Assembly: GCA_009785325.1 (NCBI GenBank)
Contig: WQWN01000003.1
Location: forward strand, 24,450 to 88,449
DNA: 64,000 nucleotides
Direction of reading: 5' to 3'
Origin: Candidatus Saccharimonadota bacterium
Lineage (GTDB): Bacteria; Patescibacteriota; Saccharimonadia; Saccharimonadales; Saccharimonadaceae
Position 1 is the first letter of the stretch; each line of letters begins with the position of its first letter. The translations under genes and the position numbers were made by a program. Below, in pieces: positions 5,015-63,843 of this stretch. The notes under the pieces are model-generated. The model did no database searches. It was not told the DNA's origin and saw nothing but the letters and a program-made list of their open reading frames with translations.

Positions 5015-5983
5015 CTACTTCCCCTCTCCGAAATACTTCTTCAAACTCACCGTATCTCCCACTCGCGCATCCCGCGTCGTCTTCAAATTCGTCACGATAT
5101 ACCCAATTTCTCCTGTCCCTAACTCATCCATCGGCATCATCCCTGGGCTCAACTTCCCAATCTCCAACGCCAACCCTGAAACCTCCGCCGCCATCATCCG
5201 CACCGCATCCCCCTTTCTCAACTTCCCATCCACTACCCTCACATAAAGCACTACTCCGCGATAATCATCATAATACGAATCAAAAATCAACGCCCGTAAA
5301 GGCCCTTCCGTATCACCAGTAGGCGCAGGTACTCGCTCCACCACCGCATCCAACACCTCTTTCACCCCCATTCCCGTCTTCGCCGAAATCTTCAAAATCT
5401 CATCCTCCCCACACCCCAACAAATTCATCACCTCCTTCGAAATCTTCGGCACATCCGCCGCTGGCAGGTCAATTTTATTTAGCACAGGAATTATCTTCAA
5501 ATCCTGCTCCATCGCCAGATATACATTCGCCAAAGTCTGCGCCTGAATCCCCTGACTCGCATCCACCACCAGAATCGCCCCCTCGCACGCCTGCAAACTC
5601 CGACTCACTTCGTAACTAAAATCCACATGCCCTGGCGTATCAATCAAGTTCAGTTCATAACTACCATTCAACGATTTTATATCTTCGATACTATGCGAGG
5701 AATCAGGAGTAGCGGAGTGAGCGGTATTTGACATACCGCGATCGAGCAACGCATCTGATGACAAAGTAGAGTGCGAAGCTACGAAATCGTACTTCATCCT
5801 CACCGGCGTCAATTTTATCGTAATCCCCTTCTCCCTCTCCAGCTCCATCGAATCTAGTAGCTGCTCTTTCATCTCTCGCTTATCCACCGTTGACGTCATC
5901 TCCATCATTCTGTCCGCCAGCGTCGACTTCCCATGATCAATATGCGCAATTATGCAAAAATTTCTGATCCGATCCAAACTCAC
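5015..5983 (-). CDS. lepA: elongation factor 4 (LepA), N-terminal half only (GTPase domain plus domain II), carrying a ~35-aa insert
   Basis: [30 protein letters not shown] and LNKIDLP are present. It ends ...[17 protein letters not shown], at the domain II/III linker. Confidence 0.9.
5669..5773. repeat. in-frame, bias-breaking insert in the LepA GTPase domain (putative RPE/MITE-like coding insertion)
   Basis: Encodes [35 protein letters not shown] between conserved KYDF.. and ..[11 protein letters not shown]. It is G-rich on the + strand, unlike its surroundings. It shares AGCTACGAAA (5777-5786) with the insert at 36613-36750. Confidence 0.45.
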
Positions 5984-12288: not shown

Positions 12289-13428
12289 TTAACCTTCCAA
12301 TTCTATCACATCTCGCCCCAGTTTCACCAACACGTCACCAGGCAAATTAAACTTCTTCCCATTCTCATAATTTCTAATCGCATCCAAAAACCGCAAAATC
12401 TGCTCCCTCATCGCCCTCACACTATTCACCTCCAACCATCCACGCAAAATCTCCACCGCCACATCATCATCCATCCCTCGATAAGACTCCCGCTGCACCA
12501 CATCCTCACCCTCCACGATCAGCCCCACGATTTCATCAATCTCCCGCTTCAACTTCAGCTGATTCTCATATAAAGCGAAAATTTTATCTCGGCACAAGCC
12601 ACTCTCATTTGACTGGGATTTCGCCAAGAGTGACGACTGAACGAACTCCATTCCGCGCCCAGGCGGACGAGAGTGTCTTGAAGACGATCGTAACCTCTTT
12701 CTCACTCGATTCCTCAAATAATCCTGACTACTATTCGTCGAATCCTCCCGCCACTCCAGTCCATTCCTCATCGCATACTCCAAAATCTCTTCCTTCCACA
12801 CCCCCAGCATCGGCCGCACTACCCCAGGACTATCCAGCGGCACCAGCCCCCTCCACCCCGTCCCCCGGATCAAATTTATCGCAACCGTCTCCACTAAATC
12901 ATCCGCATGATGCCCCGTCCAAATCTCCCCATCCTCACCCGCCACTTCCCATAAAAATCTATATCTTCTCTCCCTCGCCAACTCCTCACTCGCCCCCGCA
13001 CCCAACTCCTCTTTCCGACTCACGAACTCCACTCCGTATCTCTCTGCCAGCCCCCTCACAAACTCCTCATCCTCATCGCTATCTTCCCTGATCCCATGGT
13101 TAAAATGCGCAATTATCAAATCTGATAATTTCTCGCACTCTAGACAAGCCGAGAAGCTTCTGTTGGTTGGATTCTGAGATGTTTTTAACCTGTCTGACGT
13201 CAAGCACTCTAAACTCGCCGAGAGACTTACGTTGCTTGAGTGAAGAAATGTCTTTAGCTTTTCTGAGCTCAGAACTTTAGTCTCATTGCGAGAGTTTACG
13301 TGCGAGAAGTCAGACAAATTACAGACACATGCTGCCGCCATATCCAGCATCACCACCGAATCCACCCCCCCACTCACCGCCAAAACCACCCTCCTTCTCT
13401 CCCTATCTTTCGCCAATTCATTCGTCAT
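12289..13428 (-). CDS. tilS: tRNA(Ile)-lysidine synthase, carrying two atypical inserts
   Basis: The PP-loop VLAVSGGVDSVVM, IIAHFNHGIR, GHHADDLVET and REDSTNSSQDYLRNRVR are present. Confidence 0.8.
   Translation of the reverse strand: MTNELAKDRERRRVVLAVSGGVDSVVMLDMAAACVCNLSDFSHVNSRNETKVLSSEKLKTFLHSSNVSLSASLECLTSDRLKTSQNPTNRSFSACLECEKLSDLIIAHFNHGIREDSDEDEEFVRGLAERYGVEFVSRKEELGAGASEELARERRYRFLWEVAGEDGEIWTGHHADDLVETVAINLIRGTGWRGLVPLDSPGVVRPMLGVWKEEILEYAMRNGLEWREDSTNSSQDYLRNRVRKRLRSSSRHSRPPGRGMEFVQSSLLAKSQSNESGLCRDKIFALYENQLKLKREIDEIVGLIVEGEDVVQRESYRGMDDDVAVEILRGWLEVNSVRAMREQILRFLDAIRNYENGKKFNLPGDVLVKLGRDVIELEG
12595..12690. repeat. in-frame bias-breaking insert in tilS (second, C-proximal)
   Basis: Encodes about SSSRHSRPPGRGMEFVQSSLLAKSQSNESG right after the conserved DYLRNRVRKRL. 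It is G-rich on the + strand and contains GTGACGAC. Confidence 0.35.
13126..13329. repeat. in-frame bias-breaking insert in the tilS PP-loop domain (~68 aa) with internal repeats
   Basis: Lies between MLDMAAA and DLIIAHFNHG. It has an internal direct repeat (13135-13157 vs 13204-13226, 18/23 identical) and a perfect 14-bp palindrome TTCTGAGCTCAGAA (13261-13274). It shares CCGAGAGACT (13218-13227) with the ABC-F insert. Confidence 0.45.
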
Positions 13429-14458: not shown

Positions 14459-16243
14459 ATGCTCCTCCACGTCCAAATCACAGAAAAATCCTTCGGCTCC
14501 AAAAGCCTCTTTTCTCACATTAATTTTTCCGTCAACGACGGCGAAAAAATCGGTATCATCGGACGAAACGGTATCGGCAAAACCACTATCTTCAACATCC
14601 TCTCAGGCAAAGACACTGACTTCACAGGCGAAATCATCCAGCGCCGCGGCACCACTGCCGTCGCTACCTCCCAGGAATACCACGATGTCAAAAACCTCAC
14701 TACCACCCAGTACATCCTCTCCGGCCTCCCCGATTACGCCCGCCTCTCTGGGATCATCAACAACTTCTCCGAAATCACCACTCCCACTCACAAACAACTC
14801 ACCGAATTCTCCGACGCCCTCGAACTTTTTTCAAACAAAGACTACTACCACATCGAAGATCAAGTCCGCGAAGAACTCAAATCTTTCCAGCTCGAGTCAC
14901 ATGCCGACCAGCTTTTCTCCTCCCTCAGCGGCGGCCAAAAACGCCTCAGCGAAGTCATCAAAATCATGCACTCAAACGCCCATATCGCCCTCGTCGACGA
15001 ACCAACCAACTTCATGGACTACGTCGCCAAAAACCAATTCATCGAATGGATGAAGTCCGCCCCCGAAGCCATTCTCATCATCACCCACGACCGCGACGTA
15101 CTCCGCGAAGTCGACCGCATCATCGAAATCAAAGACCAAACAGCCATCAACTACAAAGGTAACTACGAATTTTATCTCCGCGAAAACACCTCCCGCACCT
15201 CAAACGCCATGACTGACTACGAGCTCGTCGAGCGCCGCATCGAGAATCTCAAACAAAAAATCCTCGACTACCAGCGCCTCAAAGAAAAAGCCCGCAACCC
15301 CGCCACTATTCAGCAGTTCAAACGCCTCGAAAACACCTCTCGAAAAGAACTCTCCGAACTCCAAAAAACCGAAAAACCCAACTTTTGGATCGACCGCAGT
15401 AGCGTCGAGCAGCTCGGCTACAAAGACACCGACCGCTACGACAAATACAAAGCCAAAAACGTCAAACTCGCCCTCAAATCCACCGAATCAAAATCTAAAA
15501 AGCTAATTGCCGAAGCCACCGACCTCTCCGTCGGCTACGACTCCCCCCTCTTCAAAAACATTAATTTCCAACTCCGCGAAGGCGAAGCTCTCGAAATCCG
15601 CGGCCGCAACGGAGCCGGCAAAACCACTCTAGTTCGCGCACTACTCTCGCTCAGCGATACAGACAGTAAGCGCAAGCTATTAGTTTCCGAGAGACTGGAA
15701 ACATCTGTGACGACAGATGTGGCTGAAATGGATGAGGCTACTCCGCATGACGATGCGCGAGTACCTCAGAATGCGCTCTCGGAAGCTAATGGGCTTAGCA
15801 GTCCGCTTACAATTTTCCACGGCGAATCCCACCTCGACCCTCACGTCCGCCTCGGCATCTACCACCAGGAAGTCGACACAAGGTACTTCGACCTCCTCCT
15901 CCCAGACGCCATCGACTGCCTCCACCAAGACGCAGGAATCATCATCAACGATCGCCGCATCCGCCAACTCATGTCCGACTATCTTTTCACCGACTCCGAC
16001 CGCGATGTTCTCGTCAAAAATCTCTCTGGTGGCCAAAAAGCCCGCCTCCAAATCATCGCCATGCTCGCCAACGACCCCACTCTCCTCATCCTCGACGAAC
16101 CCACCTCTCACCTCGACCTCCCAAGCATCGAGGAGCTCGAGCAAGCCCTCCTCCGCTACCACGGCGCCGTCCTCTACATTTCCCACGACAACTACTTCCG
16201 TCACGCCCTCCCCGCCCAAGTCCTCCAAATCCCCGACCGCTAA
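14459..16243 (+). CDS. ABC-F family ATPase (two ABC domains, no TM domain), with an insert in the second domain
   Basis: GIIGRNGIGKTT, LSGGQKRL and ALVDEPTN are in domain 1. IRGRNGAGKTT, LSGGQKARL and LILDEPTSHLD are in domain 2. Confidence 0.85.
   Translation: MLLHVQITEKSFGSKSLFSHINFSVNDGEKIGIIGRNGIGKTTIFNILSGKDTDFTGEIIQRRGTTAVATSQEYHDVKNLTTTQYILSGLPDYARLSGIINNFSEITTPTHKQLTEFSDALELFSNKDYYHIEDQVREELKSFQLESHADQLFSSLSGGQKRLSEVIKIMHSNAHIALVDEPTNFMDYVAKNQFIEWMKSAPEAILIITHDRDVLREVDRIIEIKDQTAINYKGNYEFYLRENTSRTSNAMTDYELVERRIENLKQKILDYQRLKEKARNPATIQQFKRLENTSRKELSELQKTEKPNFWIDRSSVEQLGYKDTDRYDKYKAKNVKLALKSTESKSKKLIAEATDLSVGYDSPLFKNINFQLREGEALEIRGRNGAGKTTLVRALLSLSDTDSKRKLLVSERLETSVTTDVAEMDEATPHDDARVPQNALSEANGLSSPLTIFHGESHLDPHVRLGIYHQEVDTRYFDLLLPDAIDCLHQDAGIIINDRRIRQLMSDYLFTDSDRDVLVKNLSGGQKARLQIIAMLANDPTLLILDEPTSHLDLPSIEELEQALLRYHGAVLYISHDNYFRHALPAQVLQIPDR
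15653..15815. repeat. in-frame bias-breaking insert in ABC-F domain 2, containing a perfect hairpin
   Basis: Encodes SDTDSKRKLLVSERLETSVTTDVAEMDEATPHDDARVPQNALSEANGLSSP between the Walker A and the conserved IYHQE. The hairpin is ACATCTGT-GACG-ACAGATGT at 15701-15720. I counted G=45 and C=35 over 15653-15808. Codons are G-ending, while the host gene uses C/A-ending codons. Confidence 0.5.
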
Positions 16244-26178: not shown

Positions 26179-27276
26179 CTAACTATAAAGTCCGTGCCAT
26201 CTCCGCCCATCAAAGATCATCGTCGGGATCATCTTCGTCCGAATCACATTGTCCACCACGTTCATATTCGTTTCGATCGTCGCCCTTACCTCTCCCGACC
26301 TCGACCGATCCACGATCTGCTCCAATTCCTCCTCACTAAACCCCCACTCCCTCAGCCAACTCTGCAGTCTCTCCTCCGCCTCTTCTGCACTATAAGACGC
26401 ATTAAATGCATCCTGATATTGCCGCCCCATCTCATCAAACCCCGTAAACAGCCTATCAATAATCATCCAATCCGTTGCAAGCTCCGTCCTCAAAATCTCC
26501 CCCTCCCCCTCTTCCAACTCCAAAAACCATTCCAACTCCACGCTCCGCACCGCTTCGATATATCGCACAATCAAATACGAATTCCTAAACGCCCACTCCT
26601 CACCTTGCACTCCAGGAATCGGATACGCCAAAAACGCCAAATTATATCGATCCATAAACCCCGAATCTAGCTTATTCAAGTACGAATCTCGACAAACTCC
26701 ACATCCCGGATCCAAAATCTTCAACGCAATCGGCAACCCCCAATCGAAATCCCGATAAAAACTCGCATTCTCAGGGATATAATCCATCGCATCCCAATTC
26801 CTAAACCTCACTGGAATCCCACTAAACGCCTCTCCAAACTCTGAGAACCAATTCGTCACAAACCTATGCGGCTGCCCGGTCCTGATCGATTCAATAAACC
26901 CCAGCCTCTCTCCATCAATATTACACGCCTCGCCCGTCCCCAGTACACACGCACTCGGCTGTCTCACGTCACACGTCCCAAAAGCAATCATCGCCGCACC
27001 GCCCTTCACCACTTCCGCCACACTCCACACCATCACGATCACCAGCACCACCGCCAAAACTTCCATCGCTACCCCAAGTGGCTTCACCAGTTCAGGTCGC
27101 CGCATCACCACTCGTGCCAACACCGAATTTTTCACATCATCCTTAAACCCCGTCTCACACTTTTGCAGCCGCACTTTCTTCGTCAAACATGCCCACGCCT
27201 TTTTCAAAGGTCTACGGAATCTCGCCGAAAAAATCGACGTAATACACAGTATAAAAAACGCAACAATACAGACCAT
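26179..27276 (-). CDS. membrane-anchored thioredoxin-fold (DsbA-like) protein
   Basis: N-terminal TM segments, a CGVC (CxxC) motif in ILDPGCGVCRDS, and the C-terminal IPTMIFDG pattern. Confidence 0.45.
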   Translation of the reverse strand: MVCIVAFFILCITSIFSARFRRPLKKAWACLTKKVRLQKCETGFKDDVKNSVLARVVMRRPELVKPLGVAMEVLAVVLVIVMVWSVAEVVKGGAAMIAFGTCDVRQPSACVLGTGEACNIDGERLGFIESIRTGQPHRFVTNWFSEFGEAFSGIPVRFRNWDAMDYIPENASFYRDFDWGLPIALKILDPGCGVCRDSYLNKLDSGFMDRYNLAFLAYPIPGVQGEEWAFRNSYLIVRYIEAVRSVELEWFLELEEGEGEILRTELATDWMIIDRLFTGFDEMGRQYQDAFNASYSAEEAEERLQSWLREWGFSEEELEQIVDRSRSGEVRATIETNMNVVDNVIRTKMIPTMIFDGRRWHGLYS

Positions 27277-28638: not shown

Positions 28639-30240
28639 ATGCGCACCACTAAATTTTTAACCCGACTACCTTTTATCGCCAGCACAGTAGCAGTAGTAAT
28701 CTTTTCCGCACAGGTAATCATCACTAATAATATCAAACCCGCGAAGACTACCGCCCTATCCATAGCCTCCATCACACCAAACCAAGGCCCAACTACTGGC
28801 GGTGAACTGATTACTGTCACTGGAAGTCTCAATCTCGCTATCACTACCCCACAAATAGCAACCGGATTCATACACTCTCTCGGTATTGACAACAATAACC
28901 AACTCTGGACATGGGGCAGTAACAACAGTAGTCAGCTCGGCAACGGCACCTCTGTCTTCCTCAGTGCCACCCCCACTCCCGTCGATATGTCAGGTGTACT
29001 TACGGGACGAGTCATTACTCAGATCTCAACGCAAGGTAATCACAACCTCGTTCTAGACAGCAAAGGACACGTCTTTGCCTGGGGCGCAAACGCTGCTGGG
29101 CAGCTCGGTGACGGCACAAATACCAGCAGTAATACCCCTGTAGCTGTTGACACCTCCGGAGTTCTCGCAGGGCGCGTCATTACTCAAATCTCAGCTGGAT
29201 CTTCTCATTCTATCGCTCTAGACGACGAGGGACGTATCTTTACTTGGGGGTTAAATAGCTCCGGACAGCTCGGTGACGGCACAACTACCGGCAGTAGCAC
29301 GCCTATCGCAGTAGACATGTCTGGAGTGCTTGATGGCAAAAACATTACACAGATAACAGCCGGAGGCTCCTTCTCTCTCGCGCTAGACGACGAAGGAACG
29401 GTCTTTGCCTGGGGATCTAACGGATCTGGTCAACTTGGCAACGGCACAACTACCAATAGTAGTGTACCTGTGGCTGTTGACGTTTCTGGGGTTCTCGCAG
29501 GACGCGTCATTACTCAGATCACAGCTGGACTTACCCACACCCTCGCCCTCGACTCTAACGGACAAGTCCTGTCTTGGGGAAATAATGAATCTGGCCGCCT
29601 TGGCAACGGCACAACTACCAATAGTAGTGTACCTGTGGCTGTTGACGTTTCTGGGGTTCTCGCAGGACGTGTCATTACCCAGATCACAGCTGGCACCAAC
29701 CAATCCGTCGTACTCGACACTACCGGCCGAGCCTTTTCCTGGGGGAATAACGAACGAGCCCATCTCGGCAATCATTCAACTACAAACAGTAGCGTACCTG
29801 TAGCTGTCGGCACCTCTGGCGTACTAGCAGATCGCACTATCACCCAGATCGCAACTGGAAGTCTCAGGTCTCTCGCACTAGATGACGAAGGCAGGGTTTT
29901 TGCGTGGGGAGCGGGCATGAGTGGCGAACTAGGCAATGGCTCAATAAACATCATTGGCACCAGCCCAGTTTCCTCTTTCGACCTTCTTGTATCCCTTAAC
30001 ACTATTATGTCGGTTACTATCGGTGGCCTTCCTTGTACAGACGTCACTATCGTCGACTCCGACACCATTACTTGCACCACTCCGGCACACCCTGCCGGCA
30101 AAGCAGACGTCACCATCAATACCTCTGACGGCAGCTCAGTCACACTCCACCAAGCTTACACATATATATCTACCCTAGAAGCACCAAATACCGAAACTCC
30201 AGACATACCCAATACCGGATATTTCCGCTACAATAACTAA
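28639..30240 (+). CDS. RCC1-repeat (7-blade beta-propeller) surface protein flanked by IPT/TIG-like domains, with a C-terminal IPNTG motif
   Basis: Repeated WG.N..GQLG.GT and a signal-anchor N-terminus. GGLPCTDVTIVDSDTITCTTPAHPAGKADVTI is IPT-like. The protein ends ...DIPNTGYFRYNN*. Confidence 0.8.
   Translation: MRTTKFLTRLPFIASTVAVVIFSAQVIITNNIKPAKTTALSIASITPNQGPTTGGELITVTGSLNLAITTPQIATGFIHSLGIDNNNQLWTWGSNNSSQLGNGTSVFLSATPTPVDMSGVLTGRVITQISTQGNHNLVLDSKGHVFAWGANAAGQLGDGTNTSSNTPVAVDTSGVLAGRVITQISAGSSHSIALDDEGRIFTWGLNSSGQLGDGTTTGSSTPIAVDMSGVLDGKNITQITAGGSFSLALDDEGTVFAWGSNGSGQLGNGTTTNSSVPVAVDVSGVLAGRVITQITAGLTHTLALDSNGQVLSWGNNESGRLGNGTTTNSSVPVAVDVSGVLAGRVITQITAGTNQSVVLDTTGRAFSWGNNERAHLGNHSTTNSSVPVAVGTSGVLADRTITQIATGSLRSLALDDEGRVFAWGAGMSGELGNGSINIIGTSPVSSFDLLVSLNTIMSVTIGGLPCTDVTIVDSDTITCTTPAHPAGKADVTINTSDGSSVTLHQAYTYISTLEAPNTETPDIPNTGYFRYNN
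29434..29693 (+). repeat. near-identical 95-nt duplication inside RCC1 paralog 1 (copies 29434-29528 and 29599-29693, period 165 nt)
   Basis: 93/95 identical by direct comparison. Both copies encode LGNGTTTNSSVPVAVDVSGVLAGRVITQITAG. Confidence 0.85.
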
Positions 30241-35943: not shown

Positions 35944-37416
35944 GTGACCAAACCAAAGACACCCACTAATTCAACCTCCTCACCCACAAAAATAGTGAAT
36001 TTTTTGATAATTTCCACCTGTATCATCCTCTTCGGCCTCGCAATCCACACCCCTATCATGGTCTTTCTATCTTCACAATTCCCCGCTGCTACTATCTTCT
36101 TCCAAGCATGGAAAGAAATTCTCCTCGGCGCAAACACCATCCTCGCCATCTACCTCATCACTCGCCAAAAACTCTGGCACACCTTCCTCCACCACGCTGT
36201 CTTCCGCGCCTCCGTCATCTTCTGTGTCTTTGGTCTCGTCGTCGCCCTCCTCACTTTCCAAAACTTTCATTCATTCGCCGCCGGCCTCATGATCGGCTTC
36301 CGCTTTATCCTAATTTTCCTCCTCATCTTCACTATCCTCCACCTCTATCCATCCGCCAAAAACCTTTTCCTGAAAACTATCATCGCTGGTGCCACTCTCA
36401 TCCTCACCTTCGGTACACTCCAAGCTCTCATCCTTCCGCACGACGTCTTATCCCACATCGGCTACTCCGAATCCACCATCCTCCCCTACCAAACCGTCGA
36501 CCAGAACTACGATTTCATCCGCATCAACTCCACCCTCCGCGGCCCCAACCCTCTCGGCGCCTTCGCTCTCATCACCCTCACCTTCGCCACTACGTACCTA
36601 TTATATTCATGGGTACAGAGACACAAAAACACACGTTCAGCACGCAATTCATCCTGTCGTATTACGCAGGACGGCGAGTACTTAGCTACGAAACCTGTGA
36701 CGACAGGATTGAGGAGCGGCGACGGGATGGATGGAGTGTTGAAATTACGTGTATTTTCTACCTTCCTCATCCTCACCTCTCTCATCTGCATCTATTATAG
36801 CTTTTCTCGCGCTGCTCTCCTCGCCTCTGTCATCTCTACCGCCACAGCCGCCTTCATCACTCTCTTCCACTTACGTCCCCAACTCATCAAAATCCTCCTC
36901 CCTACCATTCTCCTCCCTATCGCCCTTATCGCAACCACGATATTCATCCACCGCGACCACGCCTTCGTCCAAAACGTCTTTTTCCGCACCAACTACTATT
37001 CCACCAGTCCCGAAACCTCCGACGAACAGCGCATCGACTCACTCCAGCACGGCATTACTCAGATCTTCCAAAACCCTCTCGGCGTAGGTGTCGGCACCAC
37101 CGGATCTGCCTCACTTTACACCGACCACCCCATCATCCTCGAAAACCAGTTCCTCTTCGTCTCTCACGAAATCGGCATCTTCGGTCTCGTCATCTTCCTA
37201 TATATTCTCACTCTCATCTTCATCCCTCTCGTCAGACGCCACGACCCACTATCTGTCGCTACCTCCTCCGCTCTTGTCGGCCTCCTTGTTATTGGTCTCT
37301 TCCTGCCCGTCTTCGCCGATGAAACCGTCTCTATGATCTTCTTCACCCTCGCCGCAATCGCACTAACTACAAAAGGAGTAAAGTATGCCCACAAAAAAGC
37401 AAAAAGAACTTCTTAA
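35944..37416 (+). CDS. O-antigen ligase/polymerase-like (Wzy_C family) membrane protein carrying an insert
   Basis: About 10-12 TM helices. The YYSFSRAALLA...HNQFL-like ENQFLFVSHEIG pattern is present. The start (GTG at 35944) is uncertain. Confidence 0.6.
   Translation: MTKPKTPTNSTSSPTKIVNFLIISTCIILFGLAIHTPIMVFLSSQFPAATIFFQAWKEILLGANTILAIYLITRQKLWHTFLHHAVFRASVIFCVFGLVVALLTFQNFHSFAAGLMIGFRFILIFLLIFTILHLYPSAKNLFLKTIIAGATLILTFGTLQALILPHDVLSHIGYSESTILPYQTVDQNYDFIRINSTLRGPNPLGAFALITLTFATTYLLYSWVQRHKNTRSARNSSCRITQDGEYLATKPVTTGLRSGDGMDGVLKLRVFSTFLILTSLICIYYSFSRAALLASVISTATAAFITLFHLRPQLIKILLPTILLPIALIATTIFIHRDHAFVQNVFFRTNYYSTSPETSDEQRIDSLQHGITQIFQNPLGVGVGTTGSASLYTDHPIILENQFLFVSHEIGIFGLVIFLYILTLIFIPLVRRHDPLSVATSSALVGLLVIGLFLPVFADETVSMIFFTLAAIALTTKGVKYAHKKAKRTS
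36613..36750. repeat. in-frame bias-breaking insert in the O-antigen-ligase-like gene, colinear with the ABC-F insert
   Basis: Encodes VQRHKNTRSARNSSCRITQDGEYLATKPVTTGLRSGDGMDGVLKLR in a loop between TM helices. Shared words: CTGTGACGACAG (36695-36706; stem CCTGT/ACAGG), GCGAGTAC (36674-36681) and AGCTACGAAA (36684-36693). Confidence 0.5.
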
Positions 37417-55463: not shown

Positions 55464-56468
55464 TCAAACCTCACTTTGCCACTTCCATACACCCTCGATC
55501 GCTTCTTCCACTGTCCTCTCCGTTCTCCACCCTAGTTCCTCGCTAGCCCGATCCGCACTCGCATACAACACCGGCACATCCGCACCACCCACTCGTCGCG
55601 CCACCACTTCATATGCCAATTCTCTCCCCACTACATCCGAAAATATCCCAATCATCTCCAAAACCGTCTTCCCCGCCCCTGTACTTAGATTATAAGTCTG
55701 CATCCCCTTCTTCATCTTCCCTAGCGCCGCCAAATGCCCAGATACCACATCCGTAATATGAATATAATCTCGCACACACGTCCCATCAGGCGTCTCATAA
55801 TCATCTCCAAAAACCTTCACTACTCCCAATTTCCCCGCCGCCGATTGCGCGATAAACGGCACTAAGTTATTCGGTACTCCGTTCGGATCTTCTCCGAGCA
55901 ATCCACTCTCATGCGCCCCGATCGGATTAAAATACCTCAAACTCGTCACCTCTACCTCCGCATCCACCATACACCAGTCTCCCAGCACCTGCTCCACCAT
56001 ATATTTCGACCGCCCATACGGACTCGTAATCCCTACTCCTACTCTCGCATCATCCCGAATCGGCAAACTCTCCGGCTCACCATACACAGAAGCCGACGAA
56101 CTAAACACTATTCGCTTCACTCCAAATTTTTTCATTACCATTAGCAAATTTACCGTCCCCGCCACATTTGCTTCGTAGTATTCCAGTGGCTTTTCCATCG
56201 ACTCTCCCACCGCCTTCAACCCCGCAAAGTGCATCACCGCATCAAACTGCCACTCCGCAAAAACCTCTCGCACTCCCTCCGCATCCATCAGATCTACCTG
56301 TCGAAACTCCGGCCTCACACCAGCAATCCTCTTAATCCTATCCAACACTTCCACTTTACTGTTACTTAGATTATCAATCACCACAACTTCATATCCACCC
56401 CGAATCAATTCCACTACCGTATGCGACCCGATATACCCCGTTCCTCCAGTCACTAAAATCCTCTTCAT
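55464..56468 (-). CDS. galE: UDP-glucose 4-epimerase
   Basis: MKRILVTGGTGYIGSH...YGRSKYM...NLSTGAG. The start was chosen 5 nt after the AAGGAG SD. Confidence 0.9.
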   Translation of the reverse strand: MKRILVTGGTGYIGSHTVVELIRGGYEVVVIDNLSNSKVEVLDRIKRIAGVRPEFRQVDLMDAEGVREVFAEWQFDAVMHFAGLKAVGESMEKPLEYYEANVAGTVNLLMVMKKFGVKRIVFSSSASVYGEPESLPIRDDARVGVGITSPYGRSKYMVEQVLGDWCMVDAEVEVTSLRYFNPIGAHESGLLGEDPNGVPNNLVPFIAQSAAGKLGVVKVFGDDYETPDGTCVRDYIHITDVVSGHLAALGKMKKGMQTYNLSTGAGKTVLEMIGIFSDVVGRELAYEVVARRVGGADVPVLYASADRASEELGWRTERTVEEAIEGVWKWQSEV

Positions 56469-56570
56469 CAATTCTCCTTTCATCAATTCCCTTTTGCCAT
56501 ATACCACCATTCTACTACGAATTCCCTCTCAGCGACACACTCACTCTGCCTACCATTTCCGCTCAAACTA

Positions 56571-56579
56571 TGGTATAGT
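56571..56579 (+). promoter_or_regulatory. extended -10 TGGTATAGT 8 nt upstream of the ATG at 56588 (leaderless-type)
   Basis: Seen directly. Confidence 0.5.
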
Positions 56580-56587
56580 ATGTCTCA

Positions 56588-58012
56588 ATGCCAGCCAAAA
56601 ACCACTCTCTATTTTCACTTATACTCGTCCTTAGTGACTTCGTAGTTCTTCTCGCAGCTTTCACCGCTGCCTACATTCTCCGTGTCCAGTTCGACTACCG
56701 CCCCCTCGTCAATGAAATCACCTCCATCGACTACTTCCTATCTTTTCTCGCTATCGTACCCTTTTGGATCATCATTTTTGCCTGCCTCGGCCTATATTCA
56801 CCCTCCACCTACAACCGCCGCTTCTCCTCGCTCACTCGTCTTCTCCTCGGTTGTACCATCGGTATCATGCTCGTCATCACCTGGGAGTACGTCGGCAACA
56901 ACCCAATCTTCCCCGCCCGCCTAGTCGCTGCTTATGCCCTCGTCGCTTCTTTTGTTCTCATCGCCCTCTCCCGTGAACTCACTAAATTCTTACACACTCT
57001 CCTCCATCGCCGCGGTCGCGGCACCGAACGCATCCTTCTTATCGGTTCTTCTCCTATCGCTCGCGATCTTATTGACTCCATTCATGAAAACCCCGACCAC
57101 GAGATCATCGCCGTCACCAGCACCAAAAAACCAAAGGACAAATCCATTAAATATTTCCCCGACACTAGCGCCGCACTTGCCGCTATCAAACGTCTCCGTA
57201 TCAACCACATCATCCAAGCTGACCTCTACGAAAACTCTCTCGCAAACCAGTCTATCCTCGCCGCCAGCCAAAAACATCATATCCGCTACTCTTTCATTCC
57301 TGGCGAACCAGAATTCTACTCAGGCAAAAACACTCTCGACTTCTTTTTCGGATATCCTCGCCTCACCGTCTTCCAAACTCCTCTCGTCGGCTGGAGTGTC
57401 TTTTTCAAACGCGCCTTCGATCTCCTCCTCCTTCTTCTTCTCTCTCCACTCCTACTTCCTCTTTTCCTCCTCCTAGTCATCTGCCAGCGCCTCTTCAACC
57501 CTGGCCCTATCTTCTTCAAACAAACTCGCCTCTCCCGCTACAAAAAACGTTTTCAAGTCTATAAATTCCGCTCTATGAAATCCGAATATTGCGGCCAAGA
57601 CGCTATATCTATCTTCAAAAACATGGGTCGCCCCGACCTCGCCCGTGAATACTCAAAAACCCGCAAAATCAAAAATGACCCACGCATCTCCACTTTCGGT
57701 CGCATCCTCCGCCGCACTTCTCTCGACGAACTCGCCCAGATTCTCAACGTCCTCCGCGGCGAGATGTCTCTCGTCGGCCCCCGTCCCATCCTCCCTGACG
57801 AACTCGAATTTTACAAAAATCGCTCCCCACTCCTCCTTTCCATCAAACCCGGCCTCACTTCACTCGCTTCAGTCTCCGGCCGCAGCACCCTCAGTTTCGA
57901 ACGTCGCGTCAATATCGAGCTTCACTACGCTCAAAACTGGTCATTTCTCCTCGACCTCAAAATTATTGCAAAAACCATCCAAGTTGTCCTCTCTCGTTCA
58001 GGCGCCGAGTAG
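56588..58012 (+). CDS. polyprenyl-phosphate sugar phosphotransferase (WbaP/CpsE-type initiating enzyme)
   Basis: KRAFDLLLLLLLSP...GPIFFKQTRLSRYKKRFQVYKFRSM...DELAQILNVLRGEMSLVGPRP. Confidence 0.85.
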   Translation: MPAKNHSLFSLILVLSDFVVLLAAFTAAYILRVQFDYRPLVNEITSIDYFLSFLAIVPFWIIIFACLGLYSPSTYNRRFSSLTRLLLGCTIGIMLVITWEYVGNNPIFPARLVAAYALVASFVLIALSRELTKFLHTLLHRRGRGTERILLIGSSPIARDLIDSIHENPDHEIIAVTSTKKPKDKSIKYFPDTSAALAAIKRLRINHIIQADLYENSLANQSILAASQKHHIRYSFIPGEPEFYSGKNTLDFFFGYPRLTVFQTPLVGWSVFFKRAFDLLLLLLLSPLLLPLFLLLVICQRLFNPGPIFFKQTRLSRYKKRFQVYKFRSMKSEYCGQDAISIFKNMGRPDLAREYSKTRKIKNDPRISTFGRILRRTSLDELAQILNVLRGEMSLVGPRPILPDELEFYKNRSPLLLSIKPGLTSLASVSGRSTLSFERRVNIELHYAQNWSFLLDLKIIAKTIQVVLSRSGAE

Positions 58013-58369
58013 TTATTCGTCTATATCCAACCCAAAAACACTATCACTCAAAAGTTCCGCTCGAAAAGCGTCCATCCCTACAATCGCTTCTTGCCTGATT
58101 TCAAACAACTCTCGAAACTCCCGCATCACCTCCTCGTTAATCGCCCCAGTTGCTGGAAATTCCCGCTCTCCTTCTCGACTACTTATCGTCACATTTTCTC
58201 TTATATATCCAGGACGACTCAAATCCAACTGCTCCGCTCCACTCTCACGATACAAATGCATACTCAATACCAGCAGCCCACTCGCAATCACCAAACTTAC
58301 TGTCAACATTACCATCAGATTCAATCGCCCACGCCGGATCAGCTTTTTCTCTTTCTTATCCGTTACCAC
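58013..58369 (-). CDS. hypothetical single-pass membrane protein
   Basis: One TM helix (LNLMVMLTVSLVIASGLLVL). It overlaps the upstream ORF by 7 nt. Confidence 0.45.
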   Translation of the reverse strand: MVTDKKEKKLIRRGRLNLMVMLTVSLVIASGLLVLSMHLYRESGAEQLDLSRPGYIRENVTISSREGEREFPATGAINEEVMREFRELFEIRQEAIVGMDAFRAELLSDSVFGLDIDE

Positions 58370-58875
58370 AGCTCCTCCTCGATTCGCGTTAACTCCGCCA
58401 TATACTCCTCCATAATCTGATTCAGCATCGTATAATTAAACCTTACCTCCCCACGCATCCACCGCGCCGCCACTAATTTCTCGTAAAACTCCTCTGGTCG
58501 CCTCGTACAATCAATCGCCAGAAGGTCACTAATCAACCGGTCATAGATGATATAATTCCGCCGAAAATATCCCAAGTTCTCCCGAAAACTCGCCGTGATC
58601 GCCAGTAGATTCCCTGCATCCATCTGATTTTGCGCCAAGCGACTATTCATATTTGTCATCAGTCGCCCCAACACAAACTCATAATTCCTACCAAGCCCCA
58701 CTCGCGTCAGCGCGTCGCTCGTCTGTAGCTGCCTCACATCCAGCCGGATCATCTCACAATTAAATCTCACTAGAGCGATCTTCGACTCCACCACTTGTGC
58801 TGCTCGCGTATCACTCACCAGCAAAACCCCCACCAGAGCCACAAATCCAGCAGTTGTCAGTATCTTCATCATCAT
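58363..58875 (-). CDS. hypothetical secreted protein
   Basis: Signal peptide MMMKILTTAGFVALVGVLLVS. No recognisable family. Confidence 0.45.
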   Translation of the reverse strand: MMMKILTTAGFVALVGVLLVSDTRAAQVVESKIALVRFNCEMIRLDVRQLQTSDALTRVGLGRNYEFVLGRLMTNMNSRLAQNQMDAGNLLAITASFRENLGYFRRNYIIYDRLISDLLAIDCTRRPEEFYEKLVAARWMRGEVRFNYTMLNQIMEEYMAELTRIEEELW

Positions 58876-63304: not shown

Positions 63305-63450
63305 GATTCTCTCCTAATTTTAAGTCTGATTCTTTGGCTTTTGTCTCGGCTAATTATGGGTCGTTCGTCACTAGTCCGCCGCCTAGCGACCGACCCCGCA
63401 ATTTCTATCGTTATTTTGCCAAAAAAATCTCATGACCACATCATACTATA

Positions 63451-63843
63451 TTAGTGTAATTTCTTCCACTCCCGATCCCACTTCCGCACCACTCCGAACA
63501 CCATCTTCATTTCTTTTAGATAATCGTTATCCATCACTCTCCCCACCTCCTTCAGATCATCCTTCATTTTCCGCTTAATTACCTCTAGTTCTTTGTCACT
63601 CGCATAGAACATCCTCTGTCCACCATACATCATCCACCCATAATACTTGTTCTCCCACCACTCATCATGCCAAAACACAGTTCTCGGCTGCCTTGCACCT
63701 ATGTTATCCCAGATCAACTTCTCCAGTACAGGAATCAAGTCGTCCAGTTCCTTCTTTAATTCCTCTGTGTATTCTCTCTCGAAATTAAACCCAATCGTTA
63801 ACCGCGCTTTTTTGCACGGACTCTTTTTCATTTTCTTCTTCAT
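63451..63843 (-). CDS. hypothetical protein (130 aa, Trp/Lys-rich)
   Basis: ORF after an AAAGGAGAG SD. No recognisable family. Confidence 0.45.
   Translation of the reverse strand: MKKKMKKSPCKKARLTIGFNFEREYTEELKKELDDLIPVLEKLIWDNIGARQPRTVFWHDEWWENKYYGWMMYGGQRMFYASDKELEVIKRKMKDDLKEVGRVMDNDYLKEMKMVFGVVRKWDREWKKLH

Follow-up and report, generated by a model that had tools for sequence, protein, structure and literature searches.

We analyzed a 64,000-nucleotide (nt) stretch of DNA from a Candidatus Saccharimonadota bacterium (assembly GCA_009785325.1, contig WQWN01000003.1, positions 24,450 to 88,449; here called the window) in which tilS, the gene for tRNA(Ile)-lysidine synthetase, carries two lineage-specific in-frame inserts. 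The longer one, Insert 1, probably comprises one full and one tandem partial copy of a palindromic repeat of ~130 nt and of a non-coding type, referred to here as family T. The T repeat has, in our judgment, quite likely been copied in this lineage into three sites of two essential genes, once in tilS and twice in mnmA. The reading that we consider best, and hold with reasonable though not full confidence, is that these repeats resemble the Rickettsia palindromic elements (RPEs) and are tolerated in permissive loops of the host enzymes.

tilS carries two in-frame inserts that break its strand bias

The inserts were first proposed from the window sequence alone. We compared the TilS protein with 29 TilS proteins from relatives in the same family or order and with 8 closer metagenomic homologs. 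Relative to these orthologs, Insert 1 adds ~66-70 residues between helix alpha-1 (MLDMAAA) and strand beta-2 (IIAHFNHG), and Insert 2 adds ~26 residues after RNRVRKRL. Neither insert is present in the 29 family and order orthologs, whose open reading frames (ORFs) encode 277-328 amino acids (aa). The span from alpha-1 to beta-2 is ~70-77 residues in the source genome, compared to ~8 in the Aquifex structure 1WY5 and ~16 in the E. coli structure 1NI5, close to the ~14 that had been quoted for E. coli. An independent Logan assembly encodes an identical TilS protein with both inserts, which excludes an assembly artifact.

The window has a strong strand disparity, with 22,516 C and 8,910 G on the + strand (35% versus 14%; skew, -0.43). 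Contigs of the source genome (G000; a 678-kb assembly in 7 contigs, 76% complete) have GC skews of either +0.28 to +0.40 or -0.27 to -0.41, and the skew tracks the DNA strand independently of gene direction. A comparably extreme G/C disparity between strands is known from some Microgenomates (PMC7143001); our literature search found no report of one for Saccharibacteria. Both inserts interrupt this bias. Insert 1 (13126-13329) contains 45 G and 42 C on the + strand (skew, +0.03) and Insert 2 (12595-12690) contains 26 G and 27 C (skew, -0.02), while the remainder of tilS has 75 G and 354 C (skew, -0.65); Fisher P values for each insert against the rest of the gene are 1e-10 and 1e-6, respectively. 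The ortholog alignment and the skew contrast thus uphold the two bias-breaking inserts of the original prediction, which had also described them as G-rich on the + strand; in absolute terms they are skew-neutral. The break in bias is mostly a by-product of self-complementarity, because a palindrome needs equal amounts of G and C. Palindromy alone cannot account for all of the missing skew, since the partial right-arm copy within Insert 1 (13128-13188), which is not self-complementary and is ~30% diverged from its parent arm, has a + strand skew of +0.12. In a genome whose strands are extremely skewed, patches of neutral skew offer a cheap way to detect such elements.

The host gene appears to be intact. 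The assembly contains a single tilS, and its protein retains every residue that is invariant in a 60-sequence alignment of the family, which answers the objection that tilS might be a pseudogene backed up by a second, intact copy. The only Pfam match is the PP-loop domain (PF01171; E = 8.7e-39; residues 101-244). Structural modeling had been put forward as a check on the inserts; the mean predicted local distance difference test (pLDDT) score of an AlphaFold2 model based on 60 homologs is 82, with values of >90 in the core, 41-51 in Insert 1, and about 48-52 in Insert 2. Its best structural matches by Foldseek are TilS of Aquifex (2E21/2E89/1WY5), E. coli (1NI5), and Geobacillus (3A2K). A search with aragorn found three tRNA(CAU) genes (contig C5, 14996-15072, 19906-19982, and 44359-44434) and no tRNA-Ile(GAU) among the 34 tRNAs found in the 76%-complete assembly. 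Three tRNA(CAU) genes are the usual set and include the TilS substrate. Judged by the predicted fold, the invariant residues, and the single gene copy, TilS looks intact despite the inserts, which are best regarded as excursions at the surface of the enzyme core that are tolerated and probably disordered. We suggest that such inserts not be annotated as domains, nor their host genes as pseudogenes.

Insert 1 is related to two inserts in mnmA

A genome-wide repeat search, proposed along with the inserts, located relatives of Insert 1. By blastn, Insert 1 matched two segments of contig C4, with 73-76% identity over 98-119 nt (E = 2e-14 and 4e-13), and both lie in mnmA rather than in the ABC-F insert or the insert at 36.7 kb of the window, where relatives had been expected. 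A profile search of the genome for T returned 4 matches only: the full and partial copies in tilS and the two copies in mnmA. The tilS copy (nhmmer E = 3e-38; 133 bits with the covariance model) is 75% identical to the mnmA copies, and the two mnmA copies share 91% identity. Every copy is in frame, and every insert has a length divisible by three. As DNA, the tilS copy folds with -24.3 kcal/mol (z = -3.3), and the three full copies form hairpins of 115-130 nt with z scores of -3.3, -3.6, and -4.9, compared to a mean of -0.32 and a minimum of -3.25 in 46 control windows from tilS cores. Absence from related TilS proteins, two relatives in mnmA, and a single intact tilS agree with the foreign or mobile origin that had been implied for Insert 1. 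Coordinates are given in Table 1.

The tandem partial copy, which directly follows the full one on its downstream side, generates the direct repeat of 69-nt period that had been noticed in Insert 1, together with a second ...LEC peptide. The repeat proved to be longer than described, with 13135-13202 matching 13204-13271 over 68 nt at 71% identity. On its own the partial copy does not fold into a hairpin (z = +0.6). The 14-bp perfect palindrome that had been reported was also found, and the mnmA copies have TTCTGACTGCGGAA at its position, so TTCTGAGCTCAGAA is private to the tilS copy.

The consensus peptide encoded by T is ...HVN.RE.N.(V/I)L(S/T)(S/A)EKLKTF..S.N...SE.LEC..., and the stretches encoded by the tilS insert include ...VLSSEK / TFLHSSNVSLSASLECLTSDR. 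The EKLKTF stretch is invariant among the copies and corresponds to the apex of the hairpin, kept as DNA.

Table 1. Positions of tilS, its inserts, and the T copies (positions in the window unless a contig is named)
Feature	Position	Strand	Description	Basis
tilS coding sequence	12289..13428	minus	379 aa; short Aquifex-type tRNA(Ile)-lysidine synthetase; host of both inserts	ORF list, Pfam, structure matches
PP-loop motif SGGVDS	13357..13374	minus	aa 19-24, 10 residues upstream of Insert 1	translation, alignments
Insert 1, whole	13120..13329	minus	~aa 34-103, boundaries +/- 3 codons; in PP-loop domain	ortholog gap, skew, pLDDT 41-51
Full T copy in tilS (probable)	13189..13318	minus	130-nt imperfect hairpin, apex near 13251-13257	fold, blastn, nhmmer, covariance model
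Perfect palindrome TTCTGAGCTCAGAA	13261..13274		14 bp, within left arm of tilS T copy	single exact match in window
Partial T copy (probable)	13128..13202	minus	tandem, diverged; right arm only	nhmmer model positions 65-139, E = 6e-6
Insert 2	12592..12680	minus	~26 residues, aa ~254-279, boundaries +/- 7 aa; linker after RNRVRKRL	ortholog gap, pLDDT
mnmA	C4 49594-50994 (L001:595-1995)	minus	holds two in-frame T copies	
mnmA T copies	C4 50397-50529 and 49776-49908		~50 residues added each; one after GHYAR, one in C-terminal barrel domain	

Copies of T conserve a hairpin rather than a peptide

The consensus structure of T has 52 pairs; 92% were paired in the three copies, compared to 31-43% when the 3' partners were slid by 1-3 columns. 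In 22 of the pairs both sides had changed; the slid controls had 0-4 such pairs. Outer stems are completely different from copy to copy, yet complementary within each. Because part of the 22 reflects these private stems, we confined the count to the core that can be aligned by sequence. In this core, 7-8 double changes from one Watson-Crick pair to another separate the tilS copy from each of the mnmA copies; 5 pairs carry single uncompensated changes, and there are no G-T intermediates.

The peptide itself is not conserved. In the three comparisons between copies, substitutions at the three codon positions numbered 10/13/11, 11/15/11, and 6/4/4, and 18/20, 18/20, and 9/12 of the differing codons were non-synonymous. 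Of the six frames, all but one contain stops in at least one T copy, which is enough to explain why every intragenic copy has the same reading frame and a similar peptide. A search of 5.8 billion proteins with the peptide region returned the query only, with no other protein containing the T peptide. We conclude from these comparisons of sequence that the constraint on the T insert acts at the level of DNA or RNA and not on the peptide.

The two arms evolve together through Watson-Crick to Watson-Crick double changes, and their complementarity may be kept by templated correction of one arm by the other, that is, by quasipalindrome template switching at the replication fork. Such template switching, or gene conversion between arms, makes the arms of inverted repeats evolve in concert; the palindromes of the human Y chromosome are an example of arm-to-arm gene conversion. 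Quasipalindrome template-switch mutagenesis was reportedly described by Ripley in 1982, and a thyA hotspot is said to have been studied in the Lovett laboratory. Because the compensated changes lack wobble intermediates, templated correction is most plausibly the cause, more so than selection on a function such as an RNA hairpin. These processes would be expected to yield double changes without wobble intermediates, as seen in T. Template switching is a mutational process and not an element family, and we infer its action on T.

The same loops hold other palindromes in related genomes

The two nearest TilS relatives (P0002 and P0003) have 53% protein identity to the protein studied here and come from contigs with GC skews of 0.38 and 0.47 (L054 and L055). 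Both carry different long palindromes in the same TilS loop (z = -4.7 and -4.9), and there is no insert-to-insert similarity among these two and Insert 1. Two further lineages (P0056 and P0014) have marginal hairpins there, with z scores of about -2.9 where controls reach -3.25. We rejected the generalization that every insert at this loop is palindromic, as four shorter inserts have z scores from +1.5 to -1.6. On the contig of one of the nearest relatives (L055:540-5790, with P0003), recX, tilS, and ftsH are spaced by small ORFs (36-185 aa) without a Pfam match; in the window these genes are tightly packed.

At the site of the first mnmA insert (insert A, after GHYAR/GHYAQ), four other genera have unrelated inserts, two of them palindromic. 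In G003 (L041) the insert is a near-perfect in-frame hairpin of ~140 nt (-59.9 kcal/mol; z = -13), and in G007 (L042) it is an in-frame palindrome with z = -4.8. The right arm of the G003 hairpin seems to extend into the conserved LLRAVD codons. The second mnmA insert (insert B) was found in the source genome only. The insert sites in both TilS and MnmA vary in length among orthologs.

A covariance-model search of 150 genomes of the family produced one borderline match, of 46.6 bits (L059:1501-1648; G130:C2:34857-35004; in another genus, g52). It is a 150-nt hairpin (z = -8.2), lies in frame in a membrane-protein ORF of >697 aa, and has TTCTGA and TCAATCAA(C/G)G in common with the T family. 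We did not count it as a member, because a true copy scores higher than this even on its reverse strand (51.9 versus 46.6 bits).

RPE-like repeats compared with other explanations

If T is an RPE-like repeat, its copies would survive where the length is a multiple of three, the frame is the sole stop-free one, and the site is a tolerant surface loop. The inserts, which we take to be translated, would be read through and would give the enzyme, intact in other respects, an additional disordered loop. Few spacers are left in a reduced genome, so only intragenic sites would remain safe.

Several observations weigh against this reading. There are only 3.5 copies. All lie inside two genes for PP-loop enzymes of tRNA modification, and spacers contain none; a promiscuous mobile element should be more widely dispersed. 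Two T patterns, exact or gapped, had 0 matches in the GTDB genomes and the JGI metagenomes, and BLAST of the T copies against 400 genomes of the family returned chance-level matches of 18-35 nt only. No transposase of the Y1 (PF01797), rve (PF00665), DDE_Tnp_1 (PF01609), or DDE_3 (PF13358) families was found in the assembly, an absence limited by its 76% completeness. With the nearest relative at 53% protein identity there is no empty site at the nucleotide level that would fix the exact ends or reveal target-site duplications, and by eye only weak repeats flank the insert. The four non-hairpin inserts at the TilS loop indicate that this loop also varies for ordinary reasons. Insert 2, finally, has no related copy in the genome by blastn, and its fold as a whole is non-significant (z = -1.6).

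The history may be older than recent copying would suggest. A single palindromic insertion into this TilS loop, acquired by the common ancestor of G000, P0002, and P0003 (the extreme-skew clade), could have diverged beyond recognition while staying palindromic through arm-to-arm correction, with later copying between tilS and mnmA, in either direction, by gene conversion or in one or two events. The three closest TilS proteins do come from contigs with skew magnitudes of 0.38-0.47 and each has a long palindrome at the same loop, in more distant relatives the loop has either no insert or a short non-palindromic one, and outer stems that are private yet complementary, with compensated changes dominating, imply that palindromy can outlast sequence identity. 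We nevertheless regard this history as unlikely: no similarity remains among the three inserts, the 75% identity between the tilS copy and the mnmA copies of the same genome requires at least some copying between unrelated sites, and the palindromes at mnmA insert A occur in scattered genera (G003 and G007) with sister genera lacking them, which looks like independent gain. A somewhat lower probability, shared between two variants, goes to the view that these are not classical mobile elements. In one variant, long exposure of single strands at the replication fork drives the skew and lets hairpins seed, grow, and become symmetrical, so that palindromes would be born and kept locally in a few permissive loops of essential genes and exchanged between loops; if true, this would be a generator of new protein loops driven by replication. 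In the other, the hairpin that tilS and mnmA have in common acts in cis, as an RNA or DNA signal by which two modifiers of tRNA position 34 are co-regulated.

That all copies lie in tilS and mnmA, both encoding PP-loop modifiers of the tRNA wobble base, and share a reading frame and an invariant EKLKTF might also point to a portable peptide recruited by two position-34 enzymes, for example for binding tRNA or a partner. This is improbable, given that substitutions favor no codon position and are mostly non-synonymous, that the common frame is the sole open one, and that the invariant stretch is the hairpin apex, conserved as DNA; moreover, the peptide has pLDDT values of 41-51, occurs in no other of the 5.8 billion proteins, and is inserted at structurally non-equivalent positions in TilS and MnmA. 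There is very little to recommend an insert that is never translated, whether excised from the mRNA or the protein or bypassed by the ribosome (as an intron, an intein, or an element like the "byp" elements of Magnusiomyces mitochondria): although the message would contain a strong hairpin, being in frame, stop-free, and a multiple of three in length would be needless if the copies were removed or bypassed, Rfam has no match for the insert, Pfam shows the PP-loop domain alone, and 68 aa is far below intein size. Just as improbable is an ordinary variable loop grown by low-complexity slippage, or a chimeric inverted repeat made during amplification or assembly. Loop length does vary in many TilS proteins, four inserts elsewhere form no hairpin, and Insert 1 contains a tandem duplication, but a sequence family shared with mnmA (E = 2e-14 and 4e-13), covariation far above controls, and an identical sequence in an independent assembly speak against these readings, and an artifact would not leave copies so diverged (75-91% identity).

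Insert 2

Insert 2 is absent from every TilS ortholog compared, the nearest included. A 23-nt inverted repeat (12595-12617 and 12658-12680; 78% complementary) flanks it almost exactly, with a score that was matched by 10/1000 shuffles and by 0/329 strongly skewed real windows (P of about 0.01), and a weak mini-hairpin, AGT-GACG-ACT, lies within the insert at 12627-12640. Insert 2 may be a second, independent insert of the same general kind, either a singleton or decayed, an assignment to which we give slightly less than even chances. With a modest inverted repeat only and no copy elsewhere, the mobile origin that had been implied for both inserts is unproven for Insert 2.

Other hairpin families in the genome

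A genome-wide fold scan yielded 140 long-hairpin candidates, which were compared all against all by blastn. Three multi-copy families emerged, with no similarity across families: T (one copy in tilS and two in mnmA), A (the ABC-F insert and one copy on contig C6), and O (the O-antigen-ligase insert and three copies). Homology of Insert 1 or Insert 2 to the ABC-F or O-antigen-ligase inserts was rejected, as there were no cross matches among the 140 candidates.

The original prediction had linked Insert 1 to the ABC-F insert and to the 36.7-kb insert through short shared strings. One of these, CCGAGAGACT, does have two occurrences in the window, one in Insert 1 and the other in the ABC-F insert, but the two inserts belong to separate families; Insert 1 and the 36.7-kb insert are likewise separate by blastn, and their shared 7-10-mers provide no demonstrable homology. 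The motifs CCGAGAGACT, AACCTGT, and GTGACGAC were too short to be accepted as evidence of homology. The window contains 7 occurrences of GTGACGAC, with Insert 2 and the ABC-F and O-antigen-ligase inserts among the locations, compared to 1.6 expected under a shuffle null that underestimates chance occurrence of short motifs within skew-neutral patches. GTGACGAC forms the apex of a mini-hairpin, CTGT-GACG-ACAG, in the ABC-F (15700-15720) and O-antigen-ligase (36690-36710) inserts. This mini-hairpin is a possible, not an established, deep link between families.

Contig C6 has the most stable 150-nt folds of the genome, from -29 to -39 kcal/mol (about 5650-5800, 26200-26300, 29850-30000, 55900-58800, and 63450-63550), and several have a T-shaped side-hairpin as in the ABC-F family. 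This contig looks like a hot region for palindromic repeats.

Comparison with known palindromic elements

The insert had no match above noise to any Rfam family. Repetitive extragenic palindromic (REP) sequences can also lie within genes, and intragenic palindromic repeats with GTAG or CGTC tags have been described (Di Nocera et al. 2013, PMC3733652). Like T, they are palindromes able to sit in genes, and many lack a dedicated transposase; unlike T, they measure 20-40 nt and end in an unpaired GTAG or CGTC tag (PMC3733652). T is ~130 nt long, has no consistent terminal tag in the alignment of its copies, and is not accompanied by a Y1_Tnp transposase of the type associated with REP (RAYT) in the 76%-complete assembly. 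MITEs, or miniature inverted-repeat transposable elements (ERIC, BOX, Nezha, and others), are likewise short, non-autonomous elements with inverted-repeat ends and are sometimes open inside ORFs, and they differ in that their terminal inverted repeats are conserved and in having target-site duplications and a cognate transposase (PMC10969869). The termini of T are its least conserved part, with no terminal inverted repeats conserved across copies, and the four transposase families searched in the 76%-complete assembly provided no cognate enzyme.

The closest likeness in behavior is to RPE-1 to RPE-10 (Ogata et al. 2000, 2002), as summarized in PMC10969869. In that summary, RPEs are self-complementary sequences of ~100-150 nt that are repeated in the genome, sit in frame within housekeeping genes unrelated to each other in a host-dependent bacterium with a reduced genome, and are read in one conserved frame at positions compatible with the protein fold, with no recognized transposase associated (PMC10969869). 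T likewise shows ~100-150 nt of self-complementarity, repetition at unrelated sites, a conserved stop-free frame, and location in surface loops. About half of the RPE copies are intergenic according to the same summary (PMC10969869), while the 3.5 copies of T are all intragenic. T belongs to a different phylum and is likened to RPEs by behavior, not by membership in a sequence family. It also differs from them in its copy-private outer stems, with unrelated palindromes in the same loops of sister lineages, in the strong concerted evolution of its arms, and in a host genome whose extreme strand skew is broken by the elements.

Our literature search found no description of such in-frame palindromic elements in Saccharibacteria or the Candidate Phyla Radiation. 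In-frame "protein-coding palindromes" have so far been treated as a curiosity of Rickettsia. If T is read correctly as RPE-like, they are now seen in an unrelated, ultra-small, host-dependent phylum, which suggests a general outcome of genome reduction and illustrates a way in which new protein loops can arise from selfish or replication-born DNA. What distinguishes the present case from the RPEs is the combination of private stems, strong compensatory evolution of the arms, and recurrent use of the same enzyme loops.

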